A DNA stretch of 60,302 bases from contig JAXGYI010000004.1 of assembly GCA_040772365.1 (NCBI GenBank), positions 1 to 60,302 on the forward strand. The letters run 5' to 3'. Numbering within the stretch: position 1 is the stretch's first letter; the number at the start of each line of letters is the position of its first letter. The translations under genes were made by a program, and so were the position numbers. Below the pieces are notes generated by a model. That model was not told where the DNA came from, made no database searches, and saw only the letters and a program-made list of their open reading frames with translations. Shown here one piece after another: positions 4,745 to 34,780 of this stretch. This DNA is from Candidatus Moraniibacteriota bacterium (GTDB taxonomy: Bacteria; Patescibacteriota; Minisyncoccia; Moranbacterales; GCA-2747515).

Positions 4745-6631
4745 TTACTTTTTTATTTTCTGTGTAATGACCTTTATTATAGCATGTGCATCAATCTTTT
4801 CATATGCGTACAATTCCTGTGCACTACCACTCCGTGGCATACGATCTACCGCACAGTGTACGATCGCATATGTACGCGGCACCACAGCACATGCTGCAAG
4901 CACCGCTTCACCCAAGCCGCCAGCACGATAGTGATCCTCCACAATTACTACAAGCGTGCTGCCTTTCATAGCTGCGTGGAGCGCCGTCACGTCCAATGGC
5001 GCAATCACCGCAACATCTACCACACGTGCAGCAATGCCCTCACGTGCCAGCGCCGCCGCTGCATCACATGCCTGTGCCACCGTCGTGCCTGTCGCAATAA
5101 TCGTTGCCTGCGGGCGCGCCGCATCACACACTACTGCACACGCATCAACGTGTGTTTCCGTTGTATGTGATAAGAGCGGTGTTTTTTCTCGTGCCGTACG
5201 AATATAGGTGATACCTTTTGTGCGATGTGCTTTTTTCACACACGCCACCGTTGCACGTGCATCTGCCGGTGATAGGACCGTTGCGCCATACACACTACGC
5301 ATCATTGCCACATCTTCCAATCCCATTTGTGATACGCCGTCCGCACCAGTCGCTACACCGGCATGTGATCCCACAATCGTCATGCGCACATCACTATATG
5401 CCGCCATACGTATTTGATCATGTGCACGCGTGAGAAATGCCGCAAAAGAAGAAATGAACGGGTGGTAGCCACAGCGTGCCAATCCTACCGCCACACCAAC
5501 CATATTCTGCTCTGCAATATACATTTCAAAAAAGCGCTCCGGAGCATAGAGCTGCGCAACTTCCGCCATTGTGGAATTACTCACCTCAGCGTCCAACACG
5601 ACAACGGTCGGATCATCCCGCATAATACGTACAAGTGCTGCACCATAGCTATCACGCGTCGCATAGTGCGCATACGGATCGTGCATCCATTTCTGCGTAG
5701 CACTAGACTGATCAGTGCTTTTACGTGTCCGACGCTCTTCCATCATGTTCTGTGGCACAGCAATTGTGCCACGCACATCAAAATCTACATACCCCAACTC
5801 TCCGACTGCCTGCAGAAATTCATCGTGCGATAACGTCTTACCATGCCACCCGTATTTATCTTCTAAGAAAGAAATGCCCTTGCCCTTATACGTCTGTGCA
5901 ATAATCATAAGCGGTGCATCTGCATCGTCATGTACCATATGTGTCAGTACACGTGAAATTTCTTCAATGTTGTGCCCATGAATAATGACCGTACGCCATC
6001 CACATGCACGCGCACGACGAGCGTACGCTTCCATGTGGTGCCCATCCATCGTTACGCCACGCTGCCCCAGTCGATTCACATCAACAATAGCCGTGAGGTT
6101 GCCTACCTCATAGTGAGCAGCAATCTGCATCGCCTCCCACACCTGCCCCTCTGCCATCTCGCTGTCACCGAGAAGAACGAAAGTGCGTGCCGTTGTTTTA
6201 TCTAATTTCTTCTGTGCAAGTGCCATGCCCAAACCCACAGAAAGACCCTGCCCCAATGACCCTGTCGCCGCCTCAGTAAAAGGGAAGGTCATTGTTGGAT
6301 GCCCCTCTAGAGCACTGTCAAACTGTCGATATGTGGATAGATCCTCAACACGAATCGCCCCCGCTGCTGCCCACAGTGCATAGAAGAGCGGTGTAGCATG
6401 TCCCTTGGAAAAAATCACGCGATCGTTATGTTTTTCACGTGGATGTTGCACATCATAGCGTAGTATTCCACCAAAAAAGAGCACTGTCATTATTTCCACT
6501 GCCGATAGTGATGATGTCGGATGCCCAGATCCCGCCGTCGTTGTAGTGTCAAGAATCCAATACCGTAACAATGTTGCGATACGTTCTAGGTGTTTTTTTG
6601 TATGCTGATCCATGGTGATGCTTATTACCAC
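4745..6631 (-). CDS. tkt: Transketolase
   Basis: GSGHPTSSLS, SKGHA, LEGHP, TGSLGQG, TPP motif GDSEMAEG...N, EMYIAEQN, THAG-like SHAG..GADGVSQ. Confidence 0.93.
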   Translation of the reverse strand: MVISITMDQHTKKHLERIATLLRYWILDTTTTAGSGHPTSSLSAVEIMTVLFFGGILRYDVQHPREKHNDRVIFSKGHATPLFYALWAAAGAIRVEDLSTYRQFDSALEGHPTMTFPFTEAATGSLGQGLSVGLGMALAQKKLDKTTARTFVLLGDSEMAEGQVWEAMQIAAHYEVGNLTAIVDVNRLGQRGVTMDGHHMEAYARRARACGWRTVIIHGHNIEEISRVLTHMVHDDADAPLMIIAQTYKGKGISFLEDKYGWHGKTLSHDEFLQAVGELGYVDFDVRGTIAVPQNMMEERRTRKSTDQSSATQKWMHDPYAHYATRDSYGAALVRIMRDDPTVVVLDAEVSNSTMAEVAQLYAPERFFEMYIAEQNMVGVAVGLARCGYHPFISSFAAFLTRAHDQIRMAAYSDVRMTIVGSHAGVATGADGVSQMGLEDVAMMRSVYGATVLSPADARATVACVKKAHRTKGITYIRTAREKTPLLSHTTETHVDACAVVCDAARPQATIIATGTTVAQACDAAAALAREGIAARVVDVAVIAPLDVTALHAAMKGSTLVVIVEDHYRAGGLGEAVLAACAVVPRTYAIVHCAVDRMPRSGSAQELYAYEKIDAHAIIKVITQKIKK

Positions 6632-8532: not shown

Positions 8533-9731
8533 GGAGATCGTACATCATTACATTGTAGCACTGTACCATACCGTGCAATTAATCTTTTGTACAGCCGACC
8601 GCTGTCGCGTAGTATGCGCTCCTGTGTCGCACGATGCACACCAACCATGCCAAAATGAAAATCGTAGCCGCTCGTCCACTCATACCCGTCACATAAGCTA
8701 TAGTGAAAATACCCCCGCACATCTGCACCGTCAGAAATCGCCTTACGCATCCATGCAAAGATCTCTGCAAGCATCACCTGCCGATCCGTGTCATGCACAA
8801 CATTATGTGTCGGCTTGCCGTTTTCCAAAATCATTACTGGTTTACCAAAGCGCTGCACCTCCATAAGTACGCGATACAGTCCTTTGGCAAATGTTCGCCA
8901 CACGTCGGGGCTATGCCAATCATTCGTGCCGTGCACACCCCATCGCCCGCCACTGTATCCGAAATAGAATGTGTCGCTTGTATAGTAATTAATTCCAATG
9001 AAATCGCTACTGCGTGCGAGAGAACGCACCATCCATGCCGTCGTCATACACCGCTTGGCACGCAAAAACAATTTCTGCGCAATCGTTCTATGCGCCGGCT
9101 GCTCATCATTCCATAGAAATGTTGATCCGATCGGCGTTGCTGGATAACGCGCCTTCCACACAGCGTACGTCTTACGATGCATCACATGTAAATGATATGC
9201 TGCGCGCACTGCGCGCAGGCGACTTGTGAGAAATGGTGGACGCTCCCCGCTGATATAGCCCATATGGAGAAACACATTTGGCTCATTGAGTGGCACAACA
9301 ATATCAATCACATCCCCACACGTCGTACAAATCTTATGTAAAAATCGCACATACTGATCTACAAATGCACGATGGTGGACTGGCGCACACCACGCGGGTA
9401 CACTCCAATGCCACAGACCAACAACCGTCTGCATACCGCGCGCACGAATATCTAAGAGCAGTGCACGGTAGTGCGCCACAGCAGCGTCATTAAAAACACC
9501 CTCCTCCGGTTCCACGCGTGACCACGCAATTGACACACGCAGTGCTGTGCACCCAAACGACTGCGCAATGGTATGATCTTCGGCATAGCGCTGCTCATAG
9601 GCGTTCGCTGTACCAATGTGTGGCACCAACGCACGACGCGCCCACAGCGTCCAATCACTATTCGCGTCACCACTTTCTGTCTGTTGGGCGATATTTACCA
9701 CGCCCCATAAAAAATTCCCTTGCATTGCCAT
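8529..9731 (-). CDS. Glycoside hydrolase family 1 (beta-glucosidase-like)
   Basis: RVSIAWSRVEP, acid/base LNEPN, GINYY, nucleophile ILENG, GYFHYSLCDGYEW. Confidence 0.88.
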   Translation of the reverse strand: MAMQGNFLWGVVNIAQQTESGDANSDWTLWARRALVPHIGTANAYEQRYAEDHTIAQSFGCTALRVSIAWSRVEPEEGVFNDAAVAHYRALLLDIRARGMQTVVGLWHWSVPAWCAPVHHRAFVDQYVRFLHKICTTCGDVIDIVVPLNEPNVFLHMGYISGERPPFLTSRLRAVRAAYHLHVMHRKTYAVWKARYPATPIGSTFLWNDEQPAHRTIAQKLFLRAKRCMTTAWMVRSLARSSDFIGINYYTSDTFYFGYSGGRWGVHGTNDWHSPDVWRTFAKGLYRVLMEVQRFGKPVMILENGKPTHNVVHDTDRQVMLAEIFAWMRKAISDGADVRGYFHYSLCDGYEWTSGYDFHFGMVGVHRATQERILRDSGRLYKRLIARYGTVLQCNDVRSP

Positions 9732-9783
9732 AGCACGTTGCTTGTATCATCTCCCCTATGGTCTCTATCATACACTATAACAA

Positions 9784-9804
9784 AAGCGCCCGAAATGGGC
9801 GCTT
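9784..9804 (-). terminator. Intrinsic terminator after the lysozyme-like gene
   Basis: AAGCGCCC-gaaat-GGGCGCTT; followed by TTG on the minus strand (TTTT in total with the stem end). Confidence 0.6.
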
Positions 9805-9817
9805 GTGCTGCTCTCTT

Positions 9818-10654
9818 TTATTGTCGTAATGTTAATTTTTGTGTTGTAATACCAATCGGGTTCAGCGGTTTTTGTGATGCATCCATCGCCATCACGCGAT
9901 TGTAATAGGTTTGCACGGCGCCAATCCAACGTGTCACGCTTTCCGGCGTATGCGATGCACAGCTACTGCCGCACTTCCACGGTGTCACCATTTTTGCCGG
10001 CGTGTCACGCCCCGTCTCATAGACATAACGATGCAATCGCGCGCCAACAACCGTCACAGCCTCCTCCGGTGAGCTAAAACATCCGTAATCGCCAGCGACC
10101 ACGCCACGCGTACCGGCTGTTTTAATGCCCCAATAATTATAGCAATCGAGTCCACCTTTGCGTGGTGCATACCGCCCCCACTTACTCTCAATGTGCGCAA
10201 TACCCACAATGAGTGCTGCCACCTTTTGGTCCTGCTGTGCAATGACTGATGCCATATCTGTCATTGGTGATCTGGCAAGTAATTCTTCTAGCTGCATGGC
10301 AAGTGATGTGGATTCCTCTGCGATGATGTACCCAGCATTACTACGCTGCACACACTCCGCATCTGCAGAAAAAAAATCATCACTCTGCACCTGCCCTTGC
10401 TCCGTCATCACTCCCTTGCTAAATACACATGCATTATAGCGCTGCACAACGGGCTCTTGCACAATTTTCTGTACAGGCGTCTCCTGTGCATTGCTATAGA
10501 GTACGCCAATGGCGATACCAATAACCACAAGGATAATGATCCTATACAGGTATCTTGTGTATCGTGTCATCTGTGTATGCAGTGGTGATAGTGTCACCTT
10601 AAGCGCATCTGCATCCGTGCGCAATCGCAATATCGGTTCTTCGTCGTTGATCAT
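9818..10654 (-). CDS. Membrane-anchored lysozyme-fold (GH73/glucosaminidase-like) protein
   Basis: Likely start MINDEEP at 10654 (ORF track extends to 10768); TM IIILVVIGIAIGVLY; IAHIESKWG...YNYWGIK motif; CGSSC. Confidence 0.6.
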   Translation of the reverse strand: MINDEEPILRLRTDADALKVTLSPLHTQMTRYTRYLYRIIILVVIGIAIGVLYSNAQETPVQKIVQEPVVQRYNACVFSKGVMTEQGQVQSDDFFSADAECVQRSNAGYIIAEESTSLAMQLEELLARSPMTDMASVIAQQDQKVAALIVGIAHIESKWGRYAPRKGGLDCYNYWGIKTAGTRGVVAGDYGCFSSPEEAVTVVGARLHRYVYETGRDTPAKMVTPWKCGSSCASHTPESVTRWIGAVQTYYNRVMAMDASQKPLNPIGITTQKLTLRQ

Positions 10655-23567: not shown

Positions 23568-26500
23568 GCGAATAAAAGTAGAAATTCTATTAGTCTATTT
23601 GGCAGGCAAAGTATATTACCAATTGTACCGATCTACAAAAGTAGAAATTCTATTAGTCTATTTGGCGAACGTTGTACCGGCAGGAACGGTAGATCTACAA
23701 AAGTAGAAATTCTATTAGTCTATTTGGCCAATGAAATTTCTAAAAACGAATTATATCTACAAAAGTAGAAATTCTATTAGTCTATTTGGCGTGCGAGTCA
23801 GGTTGGAGCTTAATAATCTACAAAAGTAGAAATTCTATTAGTCTATTTGGCGGACTTACGGTTTCTTCAAAATAAAATCTACAAAAGTAGAAATTCTATT
23901 AGTCTATTTGGCTTTACTTAATACGAAAAGTAAATGTGATCTACAAAAGTAGAAATTCTATTAGTCTATTTGGCAAGGCACTATAATTTGATAATTTATA
24001 TCTACAAAAGTAGAAATTCTATTAGTCTATTTGGCTCGCTGGTGATAAGTTCCATATTTCCATATCTACAAAAGTAGAAATTCTATTAGTCTATTTGGCA
24101 TTTATCACCTACTTTCGCAAGAGTCATCTACAAAAGTAGAAATTCTATTAGTCTATTTGGCGGAAAAATTAAATGAGTTAAATATTGATCTACAAAAGTA
24201 GAAATTCTATTAGTCTATTTGGCTTGCCTAGTATAAAAAAACAAACTTAATCTACAAAAGTAGAAATTCTATTAGTCTATTTGGCGCGTAACCAGCCCCA
24301 GCCCCCTGAAAATCTACAAAAGTAGAAATTCTATTAGTCTATTTGGCGCATCGAACCAGACCTAATGAAGCGTATCTACAAAAGTAGAAATTCTATTAGT
24401 CTATTTGGCGATGGCAGGGATTAAAAGAAGACTTATCTACAAAAGTAGAAATTCTATTAGTCTATTTGGCCAACCAAGGCAACTAATCGTCAATCATCTA
24501 CAAAAGTAGAAATTCTATTAGTCTATTTGGCTGGCGTGGAAATTTTAGCTCTTTGTTATCTACAAAAGTAGAAATTCTATTAGTCTATTTGGCCTTCCTG
24601 ATGATGCAGTAAAGGCATTATCTACAAAAGTAGAAATTCTATTAGTCTATTTGGCAGGTAGAAAACTTCATCGTAAACGCTCGATCTACAAAAGTAGAAA
24701 TTCTATTAGTCTATTTGGCGATGAAACAAATAACTCTTGAAACAAATCTACAAAAGTAGAAATTCTATTAGTCTATTTGGCGAGTACGAATATCATAAAA
24801 GAATACAATCTACAAAAGTAGAAATTCTATTAGTCTATTTGGCATGAGAAGCTAGAGGAGCTAATTGACATCTACAAAAGTAGAAATTCTATTAGTCTAT
24901 TTGGCTAGCGGTTTTGGGGCTCCGCACAAAATCTACAAAAGTAGAAATTCTATTAGTCTATTTGGCCCTGTGGCTGACATAAAGAGGGAAATATCTACAA
25001 AAGTAGAAATTCTATTAGTCTATTTGGCCTAAAGGCGTTCACGTATTCTATTGATCTACAAAAGTAGAAATTCTATTAGTCTATTTGGCGGTGAGATAAC
25101 CAAATATGAAATTAATCTACAAAAGTAGAAATTCTATTAGTCTATTTGGCATGATCCATTGATACTAGTTGCCTTAATCTACAAAAGTAGAAATTCTATT
25201 AGTCTATTTGGCTTTATAGACACATGCTTGTAACAAATATCTACAAAAGTAGAAATTCTATTAGTCTATTTGGCAGGAAAAGGCGACACATGGTACGATA
25301 CATCTACAAAAGTAGAAATTCTATTAGTCTATTTGGCCTGTCTATATCATAAGTAAATGGCTACTATCTACAAAAGTAGAAATTCTATTAGTCTATTTGG
25401 CAGGCAAAGTATATTACCAATTGTACCGATCTACAAAAGTAGAAATTCTATTAGTCTATTTGGCGAACGTTGTACCGGCAGGAACGGTAGATCTACAAAA
25501 GTAGAAATTCTATTAGTCTATTTGGCCAATGAAATTTCTAAAAACGAATTATATCTACAAAAGTAGAAATTCTATTAGTCTATTTGGCTTTTTTATATCG
25601 CCGATCGTTTTTAATCTACAAAAGTAGAAATTCTATTAGTCTATTTGGCTGGCAATTGTATTAAGGGGTAAAAAGATCTACAAAAGTAGAAATTCTATTA
25701 GTCTATTTGGCACAGTTCTGGTGCAATATCTGCAGCATCTACAAAAGTAGAAATTCTATTAGTCTATTTGGCTTATTTGTTCCGTCCGACAATTTCATGA
25801 TCTACAAAAGTAGAAATTCTATTAGTCTATTTGGCTTGTAGAGGCAGTAAAGCCTATTCTGCAATCTACAAAAGTAGAAATTCTATTAGTCTATTTGGCT
25901 ATCGTAGAAAGCATTGCGATCACAATCTACAAAAGTAGAAATTCTATTAGTCTATTTGGCCATGCGGGAAAAAATGATTGAAAGTATCTACAAAAGTAGA
26001 AATTCTATTAGTCTATTTGGCTCGCCGTTCCATGGGGCGCTGGTAGAATCTACAAAAGTAGAAATTCTATTAGTCTATTTGGCATGCGGCGTATGATGCG
26101 AGTGTTATCATCTACAAAAGTAGAAATTCTATTAGTCTATTTGGCAAGAATACAGCGCGGGTATATAATAATCTACAAAAGTAGAAATTCTATTAGTCTA
26201 TTTGGCAGGCATTATGCGTATGGAGGTGCGAAATCTACAAAAGTAGAAATTCTATTAGTCTATTTGGCCCAATCTTAATTGATGACATAATGGGCATCTA
26301 CAAAAGTAGAAATTCTATTAGTCTATTTGGCATTTTTTTCATACTTATAAATCTCGATCTACAAAAGTAGAAATTCTATTAGTCTATTTGGCCAGAAGAG
26401 ATTGAACACTTACAATCCATCTACAAAAGTAGAAATTCTATTAGTCTATTTGGCTTGCTTTACATCTTGGAGATTTTCCGATCTACAAAAGTAGAAATTC

Positions 26501-28754
26501 TATTAGTCTATTTGGCCCGACAATCTCCAAGATATCAAACTAGCATCTACAAAAGTAGAAATTCTATTAGTCTATTTGGCACTCAAAAGTTTTGTCCTCT
26601 TGCTTATCTACAAAAGTAGAAATTCTATTAGTCTATTTGGCAATACATACGGCGCAAACGTCTTATGATCTACAAAAGTAGAAATTCTATTAGTCTATTT
26701 GGCCTGACACATCACGAATCCTTATACTGATAATCTACAAAAGTAGAAATTCTATTAGTCTATTTGGCAAGAAAACAAAAAACAAAACATATAAATCTAC
26801 AAAAGTAGAAATTCTATTAGTCTATTTGGCATATATAAGTACGAAAAAAGAATAATATCTACAAAAGTAGAAATTCTATTAGTCTATTTGGCAAGTAGCC
26901 ATTTAATGATGATATACACAATCTACAAAAGTAGAAATTCTATTAGTCTATTTGGCTGGAATTCTATTACTGCCAAATATTATCTACAAAAGTAGAAATT
27001 CTATTAGTCTATTTGGCGAATGAGCACCGTATTGGCAGATACATCTACAAAAGTAGAAATTCTATTAGTCTATTTGGCGATTATTTTTGGGCTAACAAGT
27101 CGCATCTACAAAAGTAGAAATTCTATTAGTCTATTTGGCATTTATCTGTAGCTTCCGCGACCTTTGATCTACAAAAGTAGAAATTCTATTAGTCTATTTG
27201 GCACGACGAAAATTTATATCTATCATATATCTACAAAAGTAGAAATTCTATTAGTCTATTTGGCTTAAGTTATGATTAAAATATAATTTAACATCTACAA
27301 AAGTAGAAATTCTATTAGTCTATTTGGCGCAGAGCTAGTATAATTAACCTTTGTATCTACAAAAGTAGAAATTCTATTAGTCTATTTGGCAAGCTCGCTG
27401 GAAAATCCACCTATTATCTACAAAAGTAGAAATTCTATTAGTCTATTTGGCTTCCAAGAAGACGGTGTGACTCCTTTAATCTACAAAAGTAGAAATTCTA
27501 TTAGTCTATTTGGCGTGGCGAAAAAATCTTCAGAAGGAAATCTACAAAAGTAGAAATTCTATTAGTCTATTTGGCAGGCATGCTTCAGCTTATGAGTTAT
27601 TTATCTACAAAAGTAGAAATTCTATTAGTCTATTTGGCCTGAAATGTATGCTTACATTTTGAAGATCTACAAAAGTAGAAATTCTATTAGTCTATTTGGC
27701 AATCCCGAGCCACGTGTAATAGATTATCTACAAAAGTAGAAATTCTATTAGTCTATTTGGCTATAAAGGGCACCATGAAAAATACTCGATCTACAAAAGT
27801 AGAAATTCTATTAGTCTATTTGGCCCTGTGGCTGTATCCGCCTGTGAAATATCTACAAAAGTAGAAATTCTATTAGTCTATTTGGCCTTCGTATGATTTT
27901 TCTCTATCAATTTATCTACAAAAGTAGAAATTCTATTAGTCTATTTGGCGATCATCATCGGCGAACCTCAAGCCCATCTACAAAAGTAGAAATTCTATTA
28001 GTCTATTTGGCGTGCGTTTTATCCTGAAGATTATCGTGAATCTACAAAAGTAGAAATTCTATTAGTCTATTTGGCAGGTGTTAGATGGAATTGAACTAAA
28101 TATCTACAAAAGTAGAAATTCTATTAGTCTATTTGGCCTGCTTAATTATTTGCTGCCCCCTCTATCTACAAAAGTAGAAATTCTATTAGTCTATTTGGCC
28201 CCAACATAAAAAGCAGAATTAGAAATCTACAAAAGTAGAAATTCTATTAGTCTATTTGGCATATGCAACTATACGGCATGTGTCCATCTACAAAAGTAGA
28301 AATTCTATTAGTCTATTTGGCATGTTGGAAGTACGGATTTTATATGAATCTACAAAAGTAGAAATTCTATTAGTCTATTTGGCCTTTTTTAGCCGCGCCT
28401 TGTCTGCCCATCTACAAAAGTAGAAATTCTATTAGTCTATTTGGCGCACACATATGGCACTCTAATCTGTATCTACAAAAGTAGAAATTCTATTAGTCTA
28501 TTTGGCCTTCAAAAATTGATCAAGATATTAAATCTACAAAAGTAGAAATTCTATTAGTCTATTTGGCTGGCATTACGGGTTTTATAAAATTAAATCTACA
28601 AAAGTAGAAATTCTATTAGTCTATTTGGCGAAAACACAAACAGGAATTATCATCAATCTACAAAAGTAGAAATTCTATTAGTCTATTTGGCAAATATGAC
28701 TACTCTTGCAAACTCAATATCTACAAAAGTAGAAATTCTATTAGTCTATTTGGC
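23568..28754 (-). CRISPR. Type V-A CRISPR array: 84 repeats (trailer copy truncated) and 83 spacers of 25-29 nt
   Basis: 36-nt repeat, minus strand GCCAAATAGACTAATAGAATTTCTACTTTTGTAGAT, ending in the Cas12a handle AATTTCTAC-TTTT-GTAGAT. The 23568-23603 copy lacks the final GTAGAT (trailer); leader side at 28755 next to cas2. Counts are by hand; 80 unique spacers. Confidence 0.98.
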
Positions 28755-28917
28755 TGCAGAAACCTTATATTTAAGCCAAAAAGATGCAAACTGGCCACAG
28801 GGGGCGCAACGACTTTTTGGCTTAAATACTACAAACCCCCAATACCGATGGTGGGGTTTTGCATTTTTTTCAATAGGCTGATAAGAATTTATACCTTTAC
28901 ATAATTGTAAAAGTGCT
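28755..28917 (-). promoter_or_regulatory. CRISPR leader with inverted repeats
   Basis: Non-coding 163 bp between cas2 and the first repeat; perfect 16-bp IR at 28768-28783/28813-28828 and an imperfect hairpin at ~28832-28861. Confidence 0.8.
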
Positions 28918-29199
28918 TCAGGAAATACAGATAAGATCCGACTCTTCATGCTTTGCATACCCATACCGCCTCACCTTACCGTCGCACCCCTTGCATGTGT
29001 GAAAAATCACTATACTATCCGCGCCAGTAAAATGTTTCTTATACTTCAATTCTACCTCTGTCATGATATTTTGCAAGACCCTATTGCTATCGCGTACCTG
29101 CCACACGGAATACTGAATGCGATTGCCATATTTTTCCAAAAATCTTGCAAAATGTGTTCGTGTTTTGTCGTTTTCAAAATCATACGATACGATGAGCAT
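28918..29199 (-). CDS. cas2: CRISPR-associated endoribonuclease Cas2
   Basis: MLIVSYD...RTHFARFLEKYGNRIQYSVW, 93 aa. Confidence 0.95.
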   Translation of the reverse strand: MLIVSYDFENDKTRTHFARFLEKYGNRIQYSVWQVRDSNRVLQNIMTEVELKYKKHFTGADSIVIFHTCKGCDGKVRRYGYAKHEESDLICIS

Positions 29200-29212: not shown

Positions 29213-30181
29213 TTAGCGAATAACAAATGGTGCGACCTCACCCTCATCGTTCAAAATGAGATAGTAGTGATCGCGTACGTAGTGATAGATGTCTTCTTTG
29301 TAGCGCAAAATTTCCGTGAGAAAAATGCGCGCATACTTTCCACTTGCTTTGTAAGATAAATAGTATTGCCCCTGCCGGCACCCAAAATCCCTGGAGTCAA
29401 ATTGCCCTAGTGTGTGCATCTTCACCACTGCACGATCAATGATGCACCGAAACGGCTCCATCATATCACAGGCAAGTGATTTTCTCTGAAAAAAGAGCTG
29501 GTGGTAGATACCTTTGTATGTATCAAATCCATAAACGCGCAAAATGGCATCGGTGAAATGAAACAGAAAACTATACCCCATGTCCAGCAAAATATTGTTT
29601 TCATCGACTTTGCCGCGCGGCACACGCCTATACCAATCAATCTGCGCAAAATACGCCGCAAAATAGTCCTTGGAGATCACACCTTCCACACCGCGCAATG
29701 ACGCCAGATCTTTTGCGGCGGTAATTTTTTGCACCATCAATCGCTTGTACGCGATACGTGTCTTGCCTGCAATGGTGTTGATCCCGCTTCCGCGCAACAA
29801 TGCCAAGCTATTGCGCAACTTGTTTGCTACAATATGTTTTGCCATTGCCAACGCCTGCGCATCATCCACGGCATACTGCTGTTGACGCAAAAGGTAATTT
29901 CCCTCCGCATACGATGAGACACTTGCATAAGTTTCGCAATTTCTCTTGAGAAAATAGACAGATGCGCCTGCGCGCGTGATCTTCTGCAACAATTTGCTTG
30001 TCATCGTGAAATCCCCAATCACAAAAATTGCGATAAGTTTTGCAATAGGAATTTTATCTTTTGTTTTTCCGTCCACAGTGATAAGCACATTTTCATTGCG
30101 TAAACTCAATGCGCATCCGCTCAGCGCAGAAGCGTCCAAAAGAAAGATCTGCTTTTGACGAAAATCTGGTAATTGTATCAT
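29213..30181 (-). CDS. cas1: CRISPR-associated integrase Cas1 (type V-A/PREFRAN-like)
   Basis: LRGVEG, NILLDMGYSFLF, GIYHQLFFQRKSLACDMMEPFRCIID. Confidence 0.95.
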   Translation of the reverse strand: MIQLPDFRQKQIFLLDASALSGCALSLRNENVLITVDGKTKDKIPIAKLIAIFVIGDFTMTSKLLQKITRAGASVYFLKRNCETYASVSSYAEGNYLLRQQQYAVDDAQALAMAKHIVANKLRNSLALLRGSGINTIAGKTRIAYKRLMVQKITAAKDLASLRGVEGVISKDYFAAYFAQIDWYRRVPRGKVDENNILLDMGYSFLFHFTDAILRVYGFDTYKGIYHQLFFQRKSLACDMMEPFRCIIDRAVVKMHTLGQFDSRDFGCRQGQYYLSYKASGKYARIFLTEILRYKEDIYHYVRDHYYLILNDEGEVAPFVIR

Positions 30182-30726
30182 ATGGCTTTCTTACATAGTT
30201 CACGATAAATACAGTTCTCACACTGCGCGGCATACGCCGTCTTTGCAACATGTAATGGATGGAAGCCACGCATGCGTACAAGCGTTTCTTCAAAACGCGC
30301 GCAACTCTCCGTGTCCATGGTGACATCGTATTTTTTGTTATCCGTCAACGAATGTAACGTCATTTTTTGCACACGATGTCCCATTTCCTCCAAGCAACAC
30401 TTCTGTGCCCACAGCTGAAATCGATAGCCTTCATGCACCTTTTTAATTGTGCGTTTTCGCTCTATGAGCTCACCTGTTTTTGTGTCAAACAGATCAATTT
30501 TTCCAACAATGCCGTATTGTTCTGAAAAAACCTCAATGCCCTGTAAGAGTGTTTTTCTTCCCTCCGCCGTCTTGCAATCCACGGTGGCATGAGCCAATCG
30601 CCCTGCAATTTGTGGCCGCGCCTTGTAGTGCCCGTCATCAAAACCTTCATAGACACTGTGAAAATATAGCGAATGTGGACAAAACAGAAAATCATTGATT
30701 TTGGAAATTTGGATATAATCGTACAT
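30178..30726 (-). CDS. cas4: CRISPR-associated protein Cas4 (type V-A)
   Basis: MYDYIQISKINDFLFCPHSLYFH, GKIDLFD, LIERK, C-terminal CENCIYRELC. Start placed at ATG 30726 because a consensus promoter lies at 30758-30786. Confidence 0.93.
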   Translation of the reverse strand: MYDYIQISKINDFLFCPHSLYFHSVYEGFDDGHYKARPQIAGRLAHATVDCKTAEGRKTLLQGIEVFSEQYGIVGKIDLFDTKTGELIERKRTIKKVHEGYRFQLWAQKCCLEEMGHRVQKMTLHSLTDNKKYDVTMDTESCARFEETLVRMRGFHPLHVAKTAYAAQCENCIYRELCKKAI

Positions 30727-30747
30727 AAAACATGCCACAAAAATACA

Positions 30748-30786
30748 AAAACAGCGCATTATATCATATATACGCTGTTTTGTCAA
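30748..30786 (-). promoter_or_regulatory. Consensus sigma70 promoter of cas4-cas1-cas2, overlapped by a 9-bp inverted repeat
   Basis: Minus strand TTGACA (30786-30781), 17 nt, TATAAT (30763-30758) with TG extension; AAAACAGCG (30748-56) / CGCTGTTTT (30773-81) flank the -10. Confidence 0.8.
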
Positions 30787-30802
30787 TATTCCTCTTTTCG
30801 CC

Positions 30803-33800
30803 CTACCTTCTTGTACAATTTTCCACGATAAATGCATCCCACTCTTCATTTTTAATAAAGAGATCTGGATTTGTTTTGTCTCTTTTTTCAGACTTACTCC
30901 ACGTATTAATTCTCTCCAAAATCAAAACTCCCTTACGTGCAATATTATACGCTCCATTAGCATCCCCGTTTTTTGGTAAATTTTTATCAAACTGCTCTGC
31001 TTTGCGACTGTCAAAAAACGGTTCCACAGGAGAAAGAATAAAATCTTCATCAGAAATTTTTTGCGCAGTTTTTTGATCCTGACAATCAAAGTTTCCAGAT
31101 TCTTTCAATGTGCGTATTTCCTTGTGTAAGTTGCCGTCGGTGTTTCTTATTTGGCATATCAAACGAAAATAGAAAACGATGCCTTCTAAGAGATCTTTTG
31201 AAGAATTTTCATTGATCTGGCTAATGATATTTTGTGAGATGTCAATTTTTTCAGCAATAAATAATTTTCTTAGGTTCTTGGTAATACTTCCATCACCTGC
31301 TGCAGGAAATTTTTTGTACTCCCATTGATTATTGCTTTCTTGATTGCGATAACCCTTCCATCGTTCAACATTGCTGCATACACGCCACTGTCTTCCTTCA
31401 TAAGTATATACAAAATCAAATCGCTGATTCTCATCACTCCATTCAATCGCATCTAGCTTTTCTTTTAACATCTTGCTTGTCAATTTTGCATTTTCATAAC
31501 GCAAGTACAAATGTGGTCGCCATCCACTCACAGGATCAATTTGAGAAGTATAGGCTGCTGTCGTATAAAAGATCATTCCCGTTTGCTTCCCCATCTCTTT
31601 GAGAGTTTTCACGGGAGCAGTGAGTTGATGTGCATTAAGCACTCCGCCGACTTCGGCTGGTTCTTTCGTTTTATCCACACAAAAATTTAATTTATCCAAG
31701 AGCGCCTTCTCCAACTGTTGGTATGTTGATTTTTCAATGCCACCACGCACTTGTTTAAAGCGCATATTTAAATCCTCAAAAACGATGATTGCATTATTCT
31801 CTATCGCAAGTTTTGCAATTTTATGTACGACGTGTGAAATATAGCCTTTTTTCAAATCCTTGATCTCATCCACTTTTTCCCAATCTCTCCTCTGCTGTTC
31901 GCGATTTTTTGCCCTCTTCTCTAACTCCCAATGATAATCTTTACCATTGATCACGTTCAAGGAATTACTCTCAAGAATTTTTCCTTTCTGATTAATCAAG
32001 GAATAGTAGACTAAGTGTTTTTCACCACGATCAATGCCCAAAATATTGATGTGTGGATTTTTTGCCAAAAATGCATTAACTTCCTGGTTAAACTGAAATG
32101 GCGTTTTTTCTCCCGCTGTCCTATTGATCGTAATTGGCACATGGAAAAAACTCTTGTCTTCCGTATAACGCTTTTTAGCTATAATGCCCCGCGTAAAATT
32201 GCGCTTCTCCTCTACCCTTGCGATTGATTTCGGTCTATGGAAGAGTTCCGCTTCTCCATTGAGTTTAAAGATGAAACTACGCAATGCATTTTCCTTAGAA
32301 AAAACATTTTCAAAATACATCGTATGCACGTTTTTCGTTCCACTTCTCTTCTTGCCAATATTCCAATCTCTGTTTTTTATATGGAAAAGATACAAATCAC
32401 CTGACTGATTCTTCTCATCAATATATTGTTCCGAAACATTTTGCCAAGAAATTTTATAGCCTTGATTAGATAAGTCATTTGTAAATTGTAAAAAATCTTC
32501 ATACTGACTTGTACTTTTTAACGTAAAATCAAAATCAAAATAGACCAGTCTTTCTTTATAGTAATCTATAAACTTGTGAAGATCTTTTATATTAAAAGCT
32601 TCACTAGATTTTAAGTATGTTTTTTGAACCCTAATTTCATTTATTTCCCGTGGAAGATATTTATTTTTAAAATATTCAAGAATTTTGTTTTCTCCATCAA
32701 AATCTCCTAGACTATCTATAGGAATATTGTTTTTCGAACAGAAGTTATTCCACTTTAGATCTCCCTTACCACCAGTCTTTCTAACCGTTTTTCCATTTAT
32801 AGCAATTAGATTCTGAATATCTTTTGAAGCATCTGAAATTTGCTTATATTCCATTTTTTCATAACCCGTCCCCTCGAAATTATTTCTGTATTTATCATCG
32901 AAAATCTTGTTTGCACCACCAGATTTTTTCATCACTCCCAAAAAGTAGTTGCCATTTTTTCTGAGAATCACCGCCGTATTATCAGACTCTTTGTTTTTAT
33001 CCCAACCATTCGCCAGAGTTGGATTCTCAAAATTCAACTTCCATTTTTGCACTTCCTCCCATGGCTTTTTGGTCAAATAGTTCCGCAAGCGATTATAGGG
33101 CTGCACAATTTTTTCATACGCCTCCGCAAAAAAATCGTTATAATATTTCTCATAAAAAGCGTCATCTGTTTCCAAAAAATCCACGTTCCAACGATTTTTG
33201 TACTCCAGAGAAAAATACTTTGCAAATTGATAAATTGACAAAAGATTGTCTGCAAACAACTTCACCGTTGCCGTGAGTTCTTTTGTTTTTTTCAACTCAT
33301 CTTTACGAAGCTCCTCGTCCAATTTTTGTGCAAAAATTTTATAACCCTGCACTTCCCCATTTCCTGATTTTGCGAGAAGCTCTGAGAATTCTTGCAATAA
33401 AATATGCAAAAACTGCTGCCAAACATTATCCGCTGTTGTACGCTCTTGGTGATACTTCTCTTTCCAAAAAACAGCAGTGCCGTCAAAACCCGCAGTAATT
33501 TTCTCCAAAGATGCCTGAACATACGCCACCTTGATATGATTGGGAAATGTGTATCTTTCCTGCTTCTTGTCATACCGTGCCGACTTGTCTTTGTTTTCCT
33601 TGAATACCTCAAACAATTGTTCCTCCCATAGTCTTATATCCACAGAATATTTGCGTGACAATGTCTCGAATCCTTTTTTGGTAAAATAGATCCTTGTTAG
33701 ATCAAAGTCGGAGTTATGGTACGCAAAATCCTCAAAAAGTTTTTTCAAAACTACCACCGATGCATTACCTGTCTGCAACAACTCTGTCAATTCCTTTTTC

Positions 33801-34780
33801 AGTTGTTCCTCACTGTCAATTTCGTCAATGAATTTCTCCTTTGGACTTAAAATTTGTTTGTCCAATGTTTTGAGGTGCTGTATTTTGATTTTTTTTCTCT
33901 GCTTAAACAGGTTTGCTTCTTTTTTAATGTGCCCAACGACTTGGTTATATCCATCGATACCCGTGCCAAGATCGCTGCCACTGCCTTTCTTGCCCTGCAA
34001 AACGAAGTCGCCAAAATTCCCCGCATTTTTTATCATATCACAATACTTCTCCGGCAACGTCTCCAAAAATTCTTTTGGGTATTTTTCCAACAACCATCGA
34101 TTTTCAAAACATCGCCTAAGATTATCCGTAATTCTTGTGGCAATAGCAGTTGCTGTCCCATCTGCCTTATAGAAATTTGCACGCGTTTCAAAGAATTTTT
34201 TAAAATAGCCTATAAAGCCCTTCCAGCCTTCAAAAATAGAAATGGTTTCTTCTATCACTTCACCGGTCTTTTGATCTGTTCTGCTAATCACCTCAATTGT
34301 ATCTTCGTTATATGTGCCATCATCATTTCTTCCATATCGTGGCAAAAGCACATTTTCAAAAACACCCTCCTCGGACAAAAAGCCGATATTTTTATTTTTC
34401 AATCCTGTATATTTTTCTGTTGCCCATTTTTTTGCTTGTGCATTTAAAGCTATAACAACTTCTCTCCGTAACACCCCCTCTTTATCTTCCACAGTGTTTC
34501 TAAGAGTCTTATTTTTTCTATCATCCATAAACTTCTTCAGCGCTGCCTCATACTCTCTCAAATCGGAAAATACAAAACCCTCTAGCCCTGCCTGAATAAA
34601 CTCTCGATGCAGTCTGTCAAAAAATGGTTTTGTTTTAATATATTTTTCACGAATTGCGCGATCAATATCAAAAACATTGTTTTCTTTCAGCATCTCCTGT
34701 GTCTTCCCCACCGGCTTCAACTCAAAACGCAACGTTTTGGAAAGGCTATACTTGTTTGTAAATTGATCAAAAACGCTCAT
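30803..34780 (-). CDS. cas12a: Type V-A effector Cas12a (Cpf1), 1325 aa
   Basis: YSLSKTLRFELKPVG, KLNFENPTLANGWDKNKE, NVHTMYF, RuvC motifs GIDRGEKHL / FEDLN / GDANGAYNIARKG all intact. Confidence 0.97.
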   Translation of the reverse strand: MSVFDQFTNKYSLSKTLRFELKPVGKTQEMLKENNVFDIDRAIREKYIKTKPFFDRLHREFIQAGLEGFVFSDLREYEAALKKFMDDRKNKTLRNTVEDKEGVLRREVVIALNAQAKKWATEKYTGLKNKNIGFLSEEGVFENVLLPRYGRNDDGTYNEDTIEVISRTDQKTGEVIEETISIFEGWKGFIGYFKKFFETRANFYKADGTATAIATRITDNLRRCFENRWLLEKYPKEFLETLPEKYCDMIKNAGNFGDFVLQGKKGSGSDLGTGIDGYNQVVGHIKKEANLFKQRKKIKIQHLKTLDKQILSPKEKFIDEIDSEEQLKKELTELLQTGNASVVVLKKLFEDFAYHNSDFDLTRIYFTKKGFETLSRKYSVDIRLWEEQLFEVFKENKDKSARYDKKQERYTFPNHIKVAYVQASLEKITAGFDGTAVFWKEKYHQERTTADNVWQQFLHILLQEFSELLAKSGNGEVQGYKIFAQKLDEELRKDELKKTKELTATVKLFADNLLSIYQFAKYFSLEYKNRWNVDFLETDDAFYEKYYNDFFAEAYEKIVQPYNRLRNYLTKKPWEEVQKWKLNFENPTLANGWDKNKESDNTAVILRKNGNYFLGVMKKSGGANKIFDDKYRNNFEGTGYEKMEYKQISDASKDIQNLIAINGKTVRKTGGKGDLKWNNFCSKNNIPIDSLGDFDGENKILEYFKNKYLPREINEIRVQKTYLKSSEAFNIKDLHKFIDYYKERLVYFDFDFTLKSTSQYEDFLQFTNDLSNQGYKISWQNVSEQYIDEKNQSGDLYLFHIKNRDWNIGKKRSGTKNVHTMYFENVFSKENALRSFIFKLNGEAELFHRPKSIARVEEKRNFTRGIIAKKRYTEDKSFFHVPITINRTAGEKTPFQFNQEVNAFLAKNPHINILGIDRGEKHLVYYSLINQKGKILESNSLNVINGKDYHWELEKRAKNREQQRRDWEKVDEIKDLKKGYISHVVHKIAKLAIENNAIIVFEDLNMRFKQVRGGIEKSTYQQLEKALLDKLNFCVDKTKEPAEVGGVLNAHQLTAPVKTLKEMGKQTGMIFYTTAAYTSQIDPVSGWRPHLYLRYENAKLTSKMLKEKLDAIEWSDENQRFDFVYTYEGRQWRVCSNVERWKGYRNQESNNQWEYKKFPAAGDGSITKNLRKLFIAEKIDISQNIISQINENSSKDLLEGIVFYFRLICQIRNTDGNLHKEIRTLKESGNFDCQDQKTAQKISDEDFILSPVEPFFDSRKAEQFDKNLPKNGDANGAYNIARKGVLILERINTWSKSEKRDKTNPDLFIKNEEWDAFIVENCTRR

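Follow-up and report, generated by a model that had tools for sequence, protein, structure and literature searches.

How do two neighbouring spacers of a CRISPR array come to be near reverse complements of each other? The question is raised by a type V-A array of a Candidatus Moraniibacteriota bacterium (host genome of 918,769 bases, 99.4% complete), which lies in a stretch of 60,302 nucleotides referred to here as the window. A sequence-only reading of the window had singled out spacers 37 and 36, counted from the leader, and had proposed that they were taken from homologous sites of two gene variants on opposite strands, by primed-like or co-infection acquisition, and that they might pair in the pre-crRNA. 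The locus comprises the following features:

23568..28754, minus strand: CRISPR array, 83 exact repeats (23631-28754) and a degenerate trailer repeat (23568-23603)
28755..28917, minus strand: leader region, between cas2 and the first repeat, assigned by position
28918..29199, minus strand: cas2, 93 aa; in locus L011 a 93-aa PF09827 gene comes after an identical Cas1
29213..30181, minus strand: type V cas1, 322 aa; TIGR04329, 306 bits, over the cut-off
30178..30849, minus strand: type V cas4, longest ORF; TIGR04328, 191 bits, residues 46-221
30803..34780, minus strand: cas12a, 1325 aa, intact; TIGR04330, 742 bits (cut-off 300)
26455..26480, minus strand: spacer 37, 26 nt, the older of the pair
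26481..26516, minus strand: intervening type V-A repeat, 36 nt, whose 3' 19 nt are the Cas12a handle with its 5-bp stem
26517..26544, minus strand: spacer 36, 28 nt, the newer of the pair

The module has the gene order of type V-A, with cas12a, cas4, cas1 and cas2 followed by the leader and the array, and Cas12a, Cas4 and Cas1 all scored above their type V family cut-offs. Cas12a contains the RuvC D-E-D motifs and the RNase-site histidine motif NVHTMYF, as judged from the sequence and an alignment to solved Cas12a, and the true start of cas4 probably lies about 40 codons inside the longest ORF. The 36-nt repeat carries a handle with a 5-bp stem at its 3' end and the terminal repeat is degenerate, again as in type V-A. 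All 83 repeats are invariant, and they are accompanied by 83 spacers of 25-29 nt (80 of them unique), with the leader end on the right side; the duplicated spacers, at the trailer end, are also exact copies. No convincing sigma-70 promoter was found on the array strand of the leader region. The same population is represented by a second assembly, GCA_040769235.1, which has long-read-type indel errors and a nearly identical array with one additional spacer at the right-hand (leader) end; this addition fixes the polarity of the array, indicates that acquisition was recent and makes spacer 37 older than spacer 36. Since both spacers are letter-identical and adjacent in that assembly, the pair is not an assembly artefact.

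The two spacers had been described correctly: they flank one exact repeat, and 26455-26480, read as its reverse complement, agrees with 26517-26542 at 20 of 26 positions without gaps, including a perfectly matching 12-nt core. When real spacers from different V-A arrays were set against each other, none of the 72,118 comparisons gave a whole-overlap score of at least 14, and only 2 of 137 dinucleotide shuffles contained such a score at any place in the array. Neighbour comparisons make up only 158 of the 6,320 within the array, so that a chance match between neighbours would be even rarer. The flanks outside the core also match (8 of 14 positions, p=0.02), as homology predicts. The similarity of spacers 36 and 37 is real and beyond chance.

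We found two more opposite-strand pairs in the same array, offset by 1 nt (spacers 30 and 55) and by 5 nt (spacers 31 and 39), together with a candidate third match to the DNLQD motif encoded by spacer 36:

26893..26920, minus strand: spacer 30, 24/27 as reverse complement of spacer 55; VYIIIKWL / VYIISKWL in the best frame
25338..25365, minus strand: spacer 55, pairs with spacer 30; first spacer in the older array block
26831..26856, minus strand: spacer 31, 17/21 as reverse complement of spacer 39, a weaker and AT-rich pair; IYKYEKR / IYKYEKN in the best frame
26332..26356, minus strand: spacer 39, pairs with spacer 31
28012..28039, minus strand: spacer 12, borderline, 17/26 to spacer 37 on the same strand

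Spacer 12 also encodes DNLQD; chance alone would give 0.08 matches of this kind. We parsed 18 other V-A arrays, of which one (L012) contains a same-strand pair (21/26) and another (L014) an opposite-strand pair (18/22). The rate of such pairs did not differ between this array and the others (3 per 6,320 comparisons versus 2 per 6,796, p=0.68). The 36/37 pair is not unique, and homologous overlaps recur at a similar rate in other V-A arrays. No spacers shared with arrays of other species were found. A crude model with uniform sampling converts the three overlaps among 80 spacers into an effective target pool of about 14 kb (95% interval 5-66 kb), so that much of the array would have come from a single family of invaders of small or moderate size.

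We then considered the codon-like pattern reported for the pair. In the best frame the two spacers do read ENLQDVKQ and DNLQDIKL. The description of the changes as mostly synonymous or conservative was borne out in part: four of the six fall at third codon positions, but the L/Q exchange is not conservative and the pattern of this pair is not significant alone (best-frame conservation p=0.16; codon-position clustering p=0.22). It is only suggestive. Under alternative genetic codes another frame opens (YLGDC / HLGDF) but conserves less. Each of the five pairs from this array, L012 and L014 has an open frame in which the changes are mostly silent or conservative, with a combined p=0.025 (p=0.11 for the three pairs of this array only). 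This five-pair pattern supports homologous coding DNA as the likely shared source.

These observations are best explained, in our judgement with moderate confidence, by separate ordinary acquisitions from related invaders on opposite strands. Spacers 37 and 36 would be the products of two separate, ordinary Cas4-Cas1-Cas2 acquisitions at homologous coding sites in two different members of an invader family (about 77% identical there), one from each strand. The array would have sampled such a family repeatedly, so that homologous overlaps recur (three pairs among the 80 unique spacers), and the neighbouring position would reflect infections close in time, or luck. Co-infection and successive infections are both compatible with the pair. 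A point against this explanation is that, once one PAM is given, a second would fall in register on the opposite strand only about 11% of the time. The central proposal of the sequence-only reading, homologous sites of two gene variants hit from opposite strands, thus remains the best one, backed by the two further pairs here and the two in other V-A arrays.

For the sources of spacers 36 and 37, we infer an invader origin, a coding frame and PAMs. Searches of IMG/VR, JGI metagenomes, GenBank phages, PLSDB plasmids, the host genome and related genomes yielded no protospacer for any spacer; the best matches were at chance level and had no PAM. Spacers 36 and 37 were searched as exact degenerate patterns in IMG/VR and JGI metagenomes and with up to 3 mismatches in 60 same-order genomes, and neither search gave a match; BLAST against phages and plasmids returned chance or repeat matches only. 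The host genome contained only chance-level matches at up to 6 mismatches and no self-target, and we rejected self-targeting. Scans with the 30/55 and 31/39 pairs gave only weak matches lacking a PAM, the weak matches in family genomes also lacked PAMs, and the array repeat was not found in metagenome and viral contigs. A scan with the back-translated motif returned 30 loci in many unrelated proteins, the best with at most 21 matches, too scattered to point to any target family. One candidate, unproven, is an HNH endonuclease motif (L070, L085). Several individual matches were rejected. Looser patterns gave chance matches: one (L017) lies antisense to a metallo-hydrolase-like gene, and two loci matching spacer 37 at 22/26 (L031, L035) have no TTTV PAM and fall within a carbamoyltransferase-like gene, in antisense, in a phage unlinked to the host. 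Reading ENLQDVK as the NLQDVVYK stretch of Francisella Cas12a requires a two-residue gap, and the DNA matches no fetched cas12a locus.

We next weighed whether the older spacer had directed the acquisition of the newer one. Cas12a carrying crRNA 37 would have bound or nicked the mismatched variant and focused Cas4-Cas1-Cas2 there, yielding spacer 36. Spacer 36 was indeed acquired directly after spacer 37, and distances within the pairs are shorter than in random order (p=0.017). Moreover, Hille et al. (PMC13034035) reported that Cas12a, its nuclease residue and crRNA raise the efficiency of naive V-A acquisition in vivo, results that leave room for target-stimulated uptake without demonstrating it. 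However, the distance effect weakens when 36/37 is removed (p=0.15); the other two pairs lie 8 and 25 spacers apart, and at least one adjacent pair among three is expected in random order with p=0.07. Time-clustered infections would shorten pair distances with or without priming. Counted from the PAM end, crRNA 37 mismatches the source of spacer 36 at positions 2, 5, 18, 20, 23 and 25, of which 2 and 5 lie in the seed, and these six differences point to a distinct relative rather than an escape mutant. Judging from Cas12a cut positions, cleavage within the protospacer would also tend to ruin the 26-28 bp that were acquired intact. Finally, type V-A was tested directly for priming by Wu et al. 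(PMC9419969) and none was seen. The suggestion of primed-like acquisition is thus unsupported, given the seed mismatches, the adjacency statistic and that negative test, and we regard it as unlikely. The compound reading, in which the pair records Cas12a-stimulated acquisition at a mismatched target and the new spacer also pairs with and silences the old one, is improbable too.

The flush register of the pair suggested another route, in which a prespacer with a single PAM was integrated correctly from one variant and backwards from another, leaving one spacer non-functional. Consistent with such flipping, 36/37 is flush at one end, 30/55 is offset by only 1 nt, and all three pairs of the array have opposite orientation (p=0.125 for three of three). 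Type I-E systems flip spacers pervasively, and natural arrays have also been reported to contain complementary pairs (PMC4027179). The register itself carries little information, however, since at 77% identity only overlaps of at least 24 nt (near-flush) are detectable and a flush register is therefore a precondition for noticing the pair. In addition, cas4 is intact here, V-A Cas4 makes new spacers PAM-correct by enforcing a 5' TTTN PAM (PMC13034035), and flipping would still require two variants, as the spacers differ at six sites. We give this route a small chance. Taken one at a time, orientation, register and adjacency could all result from sampling one family of related invaders repeatedly and at random, the reading that we prefer.

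A chance likeness of two unrelated AT-rich spacers also has some evidence on its side: 3 of 40 whole-array shuffles reach the 36/37 level under a more permissive local score, the codon test for the pair is not significant, no source was found, and the pair was chosen by eye post hoc. The cross-array and shuffle comparisons and the small share of neighbours among all comparisons nonetheless argue against it, and the clearly non-chance 30/55 pair shows that the array samples homologous sites, so we assign coincidence a low probability. An origin within the array is very unlikely. In this scenario part of spacer 37 would have been copied onto its neighbour by inversion or template switching, or spacer 36 would have been re-acquired from the array and then mutated. 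The inverted neighbours with their perfect core would fit this origin, as would the recombination evident in the duplicated trailer spacers, but the flanks match above chance and the differences are scattered. Six mutations after acquisition are implausible in an array whose repeats are invariant and whose duplicated spacers are exact copies, and an origin of this kind cannot produce the non-adjacent pairs.

Whatever its origin, the complementarity would have consequences in the transcript. The claim that the two spacers could pair around the intervening repeat agrees with RNA folding, which predicts about 21 bp between them (against a median of 1.2) and makes them the strongest neighbour pair, with the lowest minimum free energy of 81 (-41.7 kcal/mol, z=-3.7). 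In both guides, the first 20 nt are predicted to be only 12-19% unpaired. The companion claim of altered processing finds no support in the folding: the handle of the intervening repeat is predicted to stay formed, with a pairing probability of 0.80 (array median 0.88; 26 of the 81 neighbour pairs are lower), and to remain folded in the loop with longer context and at lower temperature. A folded handle makes sequestered guides likelier than blocked processing, and sequestration of guides 36 and 37 is plausible on these predictions. As a by-product of the two ordinary acquisitions, the pairing would then probably weaken both guides mutually, and a loss of guide activity is what we infer from the folding. 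That this pairing is an antisense control under selection, with spacer 36 kept to silence a harmful guide 37 or the reverse, is highly implausible despite the extent of the predicted pairing, because the genome has no self-target and nothing thus points to selection, the duplex trimmed to 23 nt (-19.5 kcal/mol) ranks only sixth among the array's spacer pairs, and no spacers are shared with arrays of other species.

The pair is most likely an ordinary outcome of repeated infection rather than evidence for a new immune mechanism. It indicates that an ultrasmall bacterium has been repeatedly attacked by a family of diverged, uncatalogued invaders. It also offers a natural test case of whether two complementary spacers side by side neutralise one another if the handle remains folded. 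If mapping showed priming, the pair would matter more, because priming in V-A has been tested and not seen.

Compared with known systems, 36/37 is a new instance of known phenomena. The locus resembles the type V-A system of Francisella novicida U112 (cas12a-cas4-cas1-cas2 and array; PMC9419969, PMC13034035) in gene order, in family matches over the cut-offs, in a 36-nt repeat ending in the Cas12a handle and in spacers of 25-29 nt, and differs from it in its divergent Cas12a and repeat 5' half, its Patescibacteria host and its much longer array. Shmakov et al. 2014 (PMC4027179) reported flips in the type I-E system of E. coli, and naturally occurring pairs in S. agalactiae, gut metagenomes and Sulfolobus, which likewise place two spacers over one stretch in opposite orientation and nearly flush. 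Whereas flips are exact complements from one protospacer, spacers 36 and 37 match at only 20 of 26 positions in a type V-A array, and the six differences mean that they derive from two variants. Spacer-spacer interference in Cas12a arrays is already known, and 36/37 would add a predicted instance. Liao et al. 2019 (PMC6610086) found that a hairpin bridging spacers can abolish Cas12a activity when the handle is disrupted, and effects of array context in Cas12a arrays are also described in PMC8478413. As in the former study, an imperfect hairpin joins two neighbouring spacers over one repeat; there the array was synthetic, the handle was disrupted and clearance was abolished, whereas here the array is natural and the handle is predicted to be kept (P ~0.8). 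Primed adaptation in type I and II-A, in which an existing mismatched spacer leads to a new one from the vicinity of its target, is similar in that respect, but the overlap here is complete rather than nearby, no clustering has been mapped, and priming has not been demonstrated for V-A (PMC9419969).

Spacers 52-54, numbered from the leader, recur at the trailer, within 23568-25552 at the old end of the type V-A array, which looks like two blocks with a common trailer. In L045, the locus of a second assembly from the same population (GCA_040769235.1) with nearly the same array, six spacers (49-54) recur at 9588-9922, versus three (52-54) in the window, and window spacers 78-80 are absent. Compared between these two loci, the old end of the array is variable within the population.

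The L045 array also carries one additional spacer at its leader end (4786-4807), read as 22 nt and adjoining a variant repeat, which indicates that acquisition was recent. The leader region of the window contains a perfect 16-bp inverted repeat (28768-28828) with arms 29 nt apart. This inverted repeat is shared with the related locus L046, where the array is down to one spacer and the 5' half of the repeat is unlike that of the window.

Within the window array, spacers 5 and 6 (28446-28531 region) are expected from folding predictions to pair with each other over about 11 bp, reducing the handle between them, the 3' 19 nt of the repeat, to a predicted pairing probability of 0.61. This predicted probability falls below 0.8 in 26 of the 81 neighbour pairs, and several lie below 0.3. 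No other spacer of the array matches the repeat over as long a stretch as spacer 29 (26957-26981), which has 10 nt in common with it on one strand and 8 nt on the opposite one; the likeness may be coincidental or may reflect acquisition from an element resembling the repeat. Spacer 24 (27265-27292) is a partial palindrome, with a score of 14 when aligned to its reverse complement, and at the trailer end of L014, a related V-A array, spacers 48-49 are a tandem duplicate of a partly self-complementary spacer.

Two microvirus genomes, L043 (MG945527.1) and L044 (MK496751.1), each contain a solitary exact 19-nt Cas12a handle. It lies near locus position 1510-1540, within intergenic DNA or close to it.

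In MG945527.1, the bases that follow the handle match positions 3-14 of crRNA 56 of the window array in register; the sample sources are not the same. Both solitary handles resemble repeat-mimic elements.
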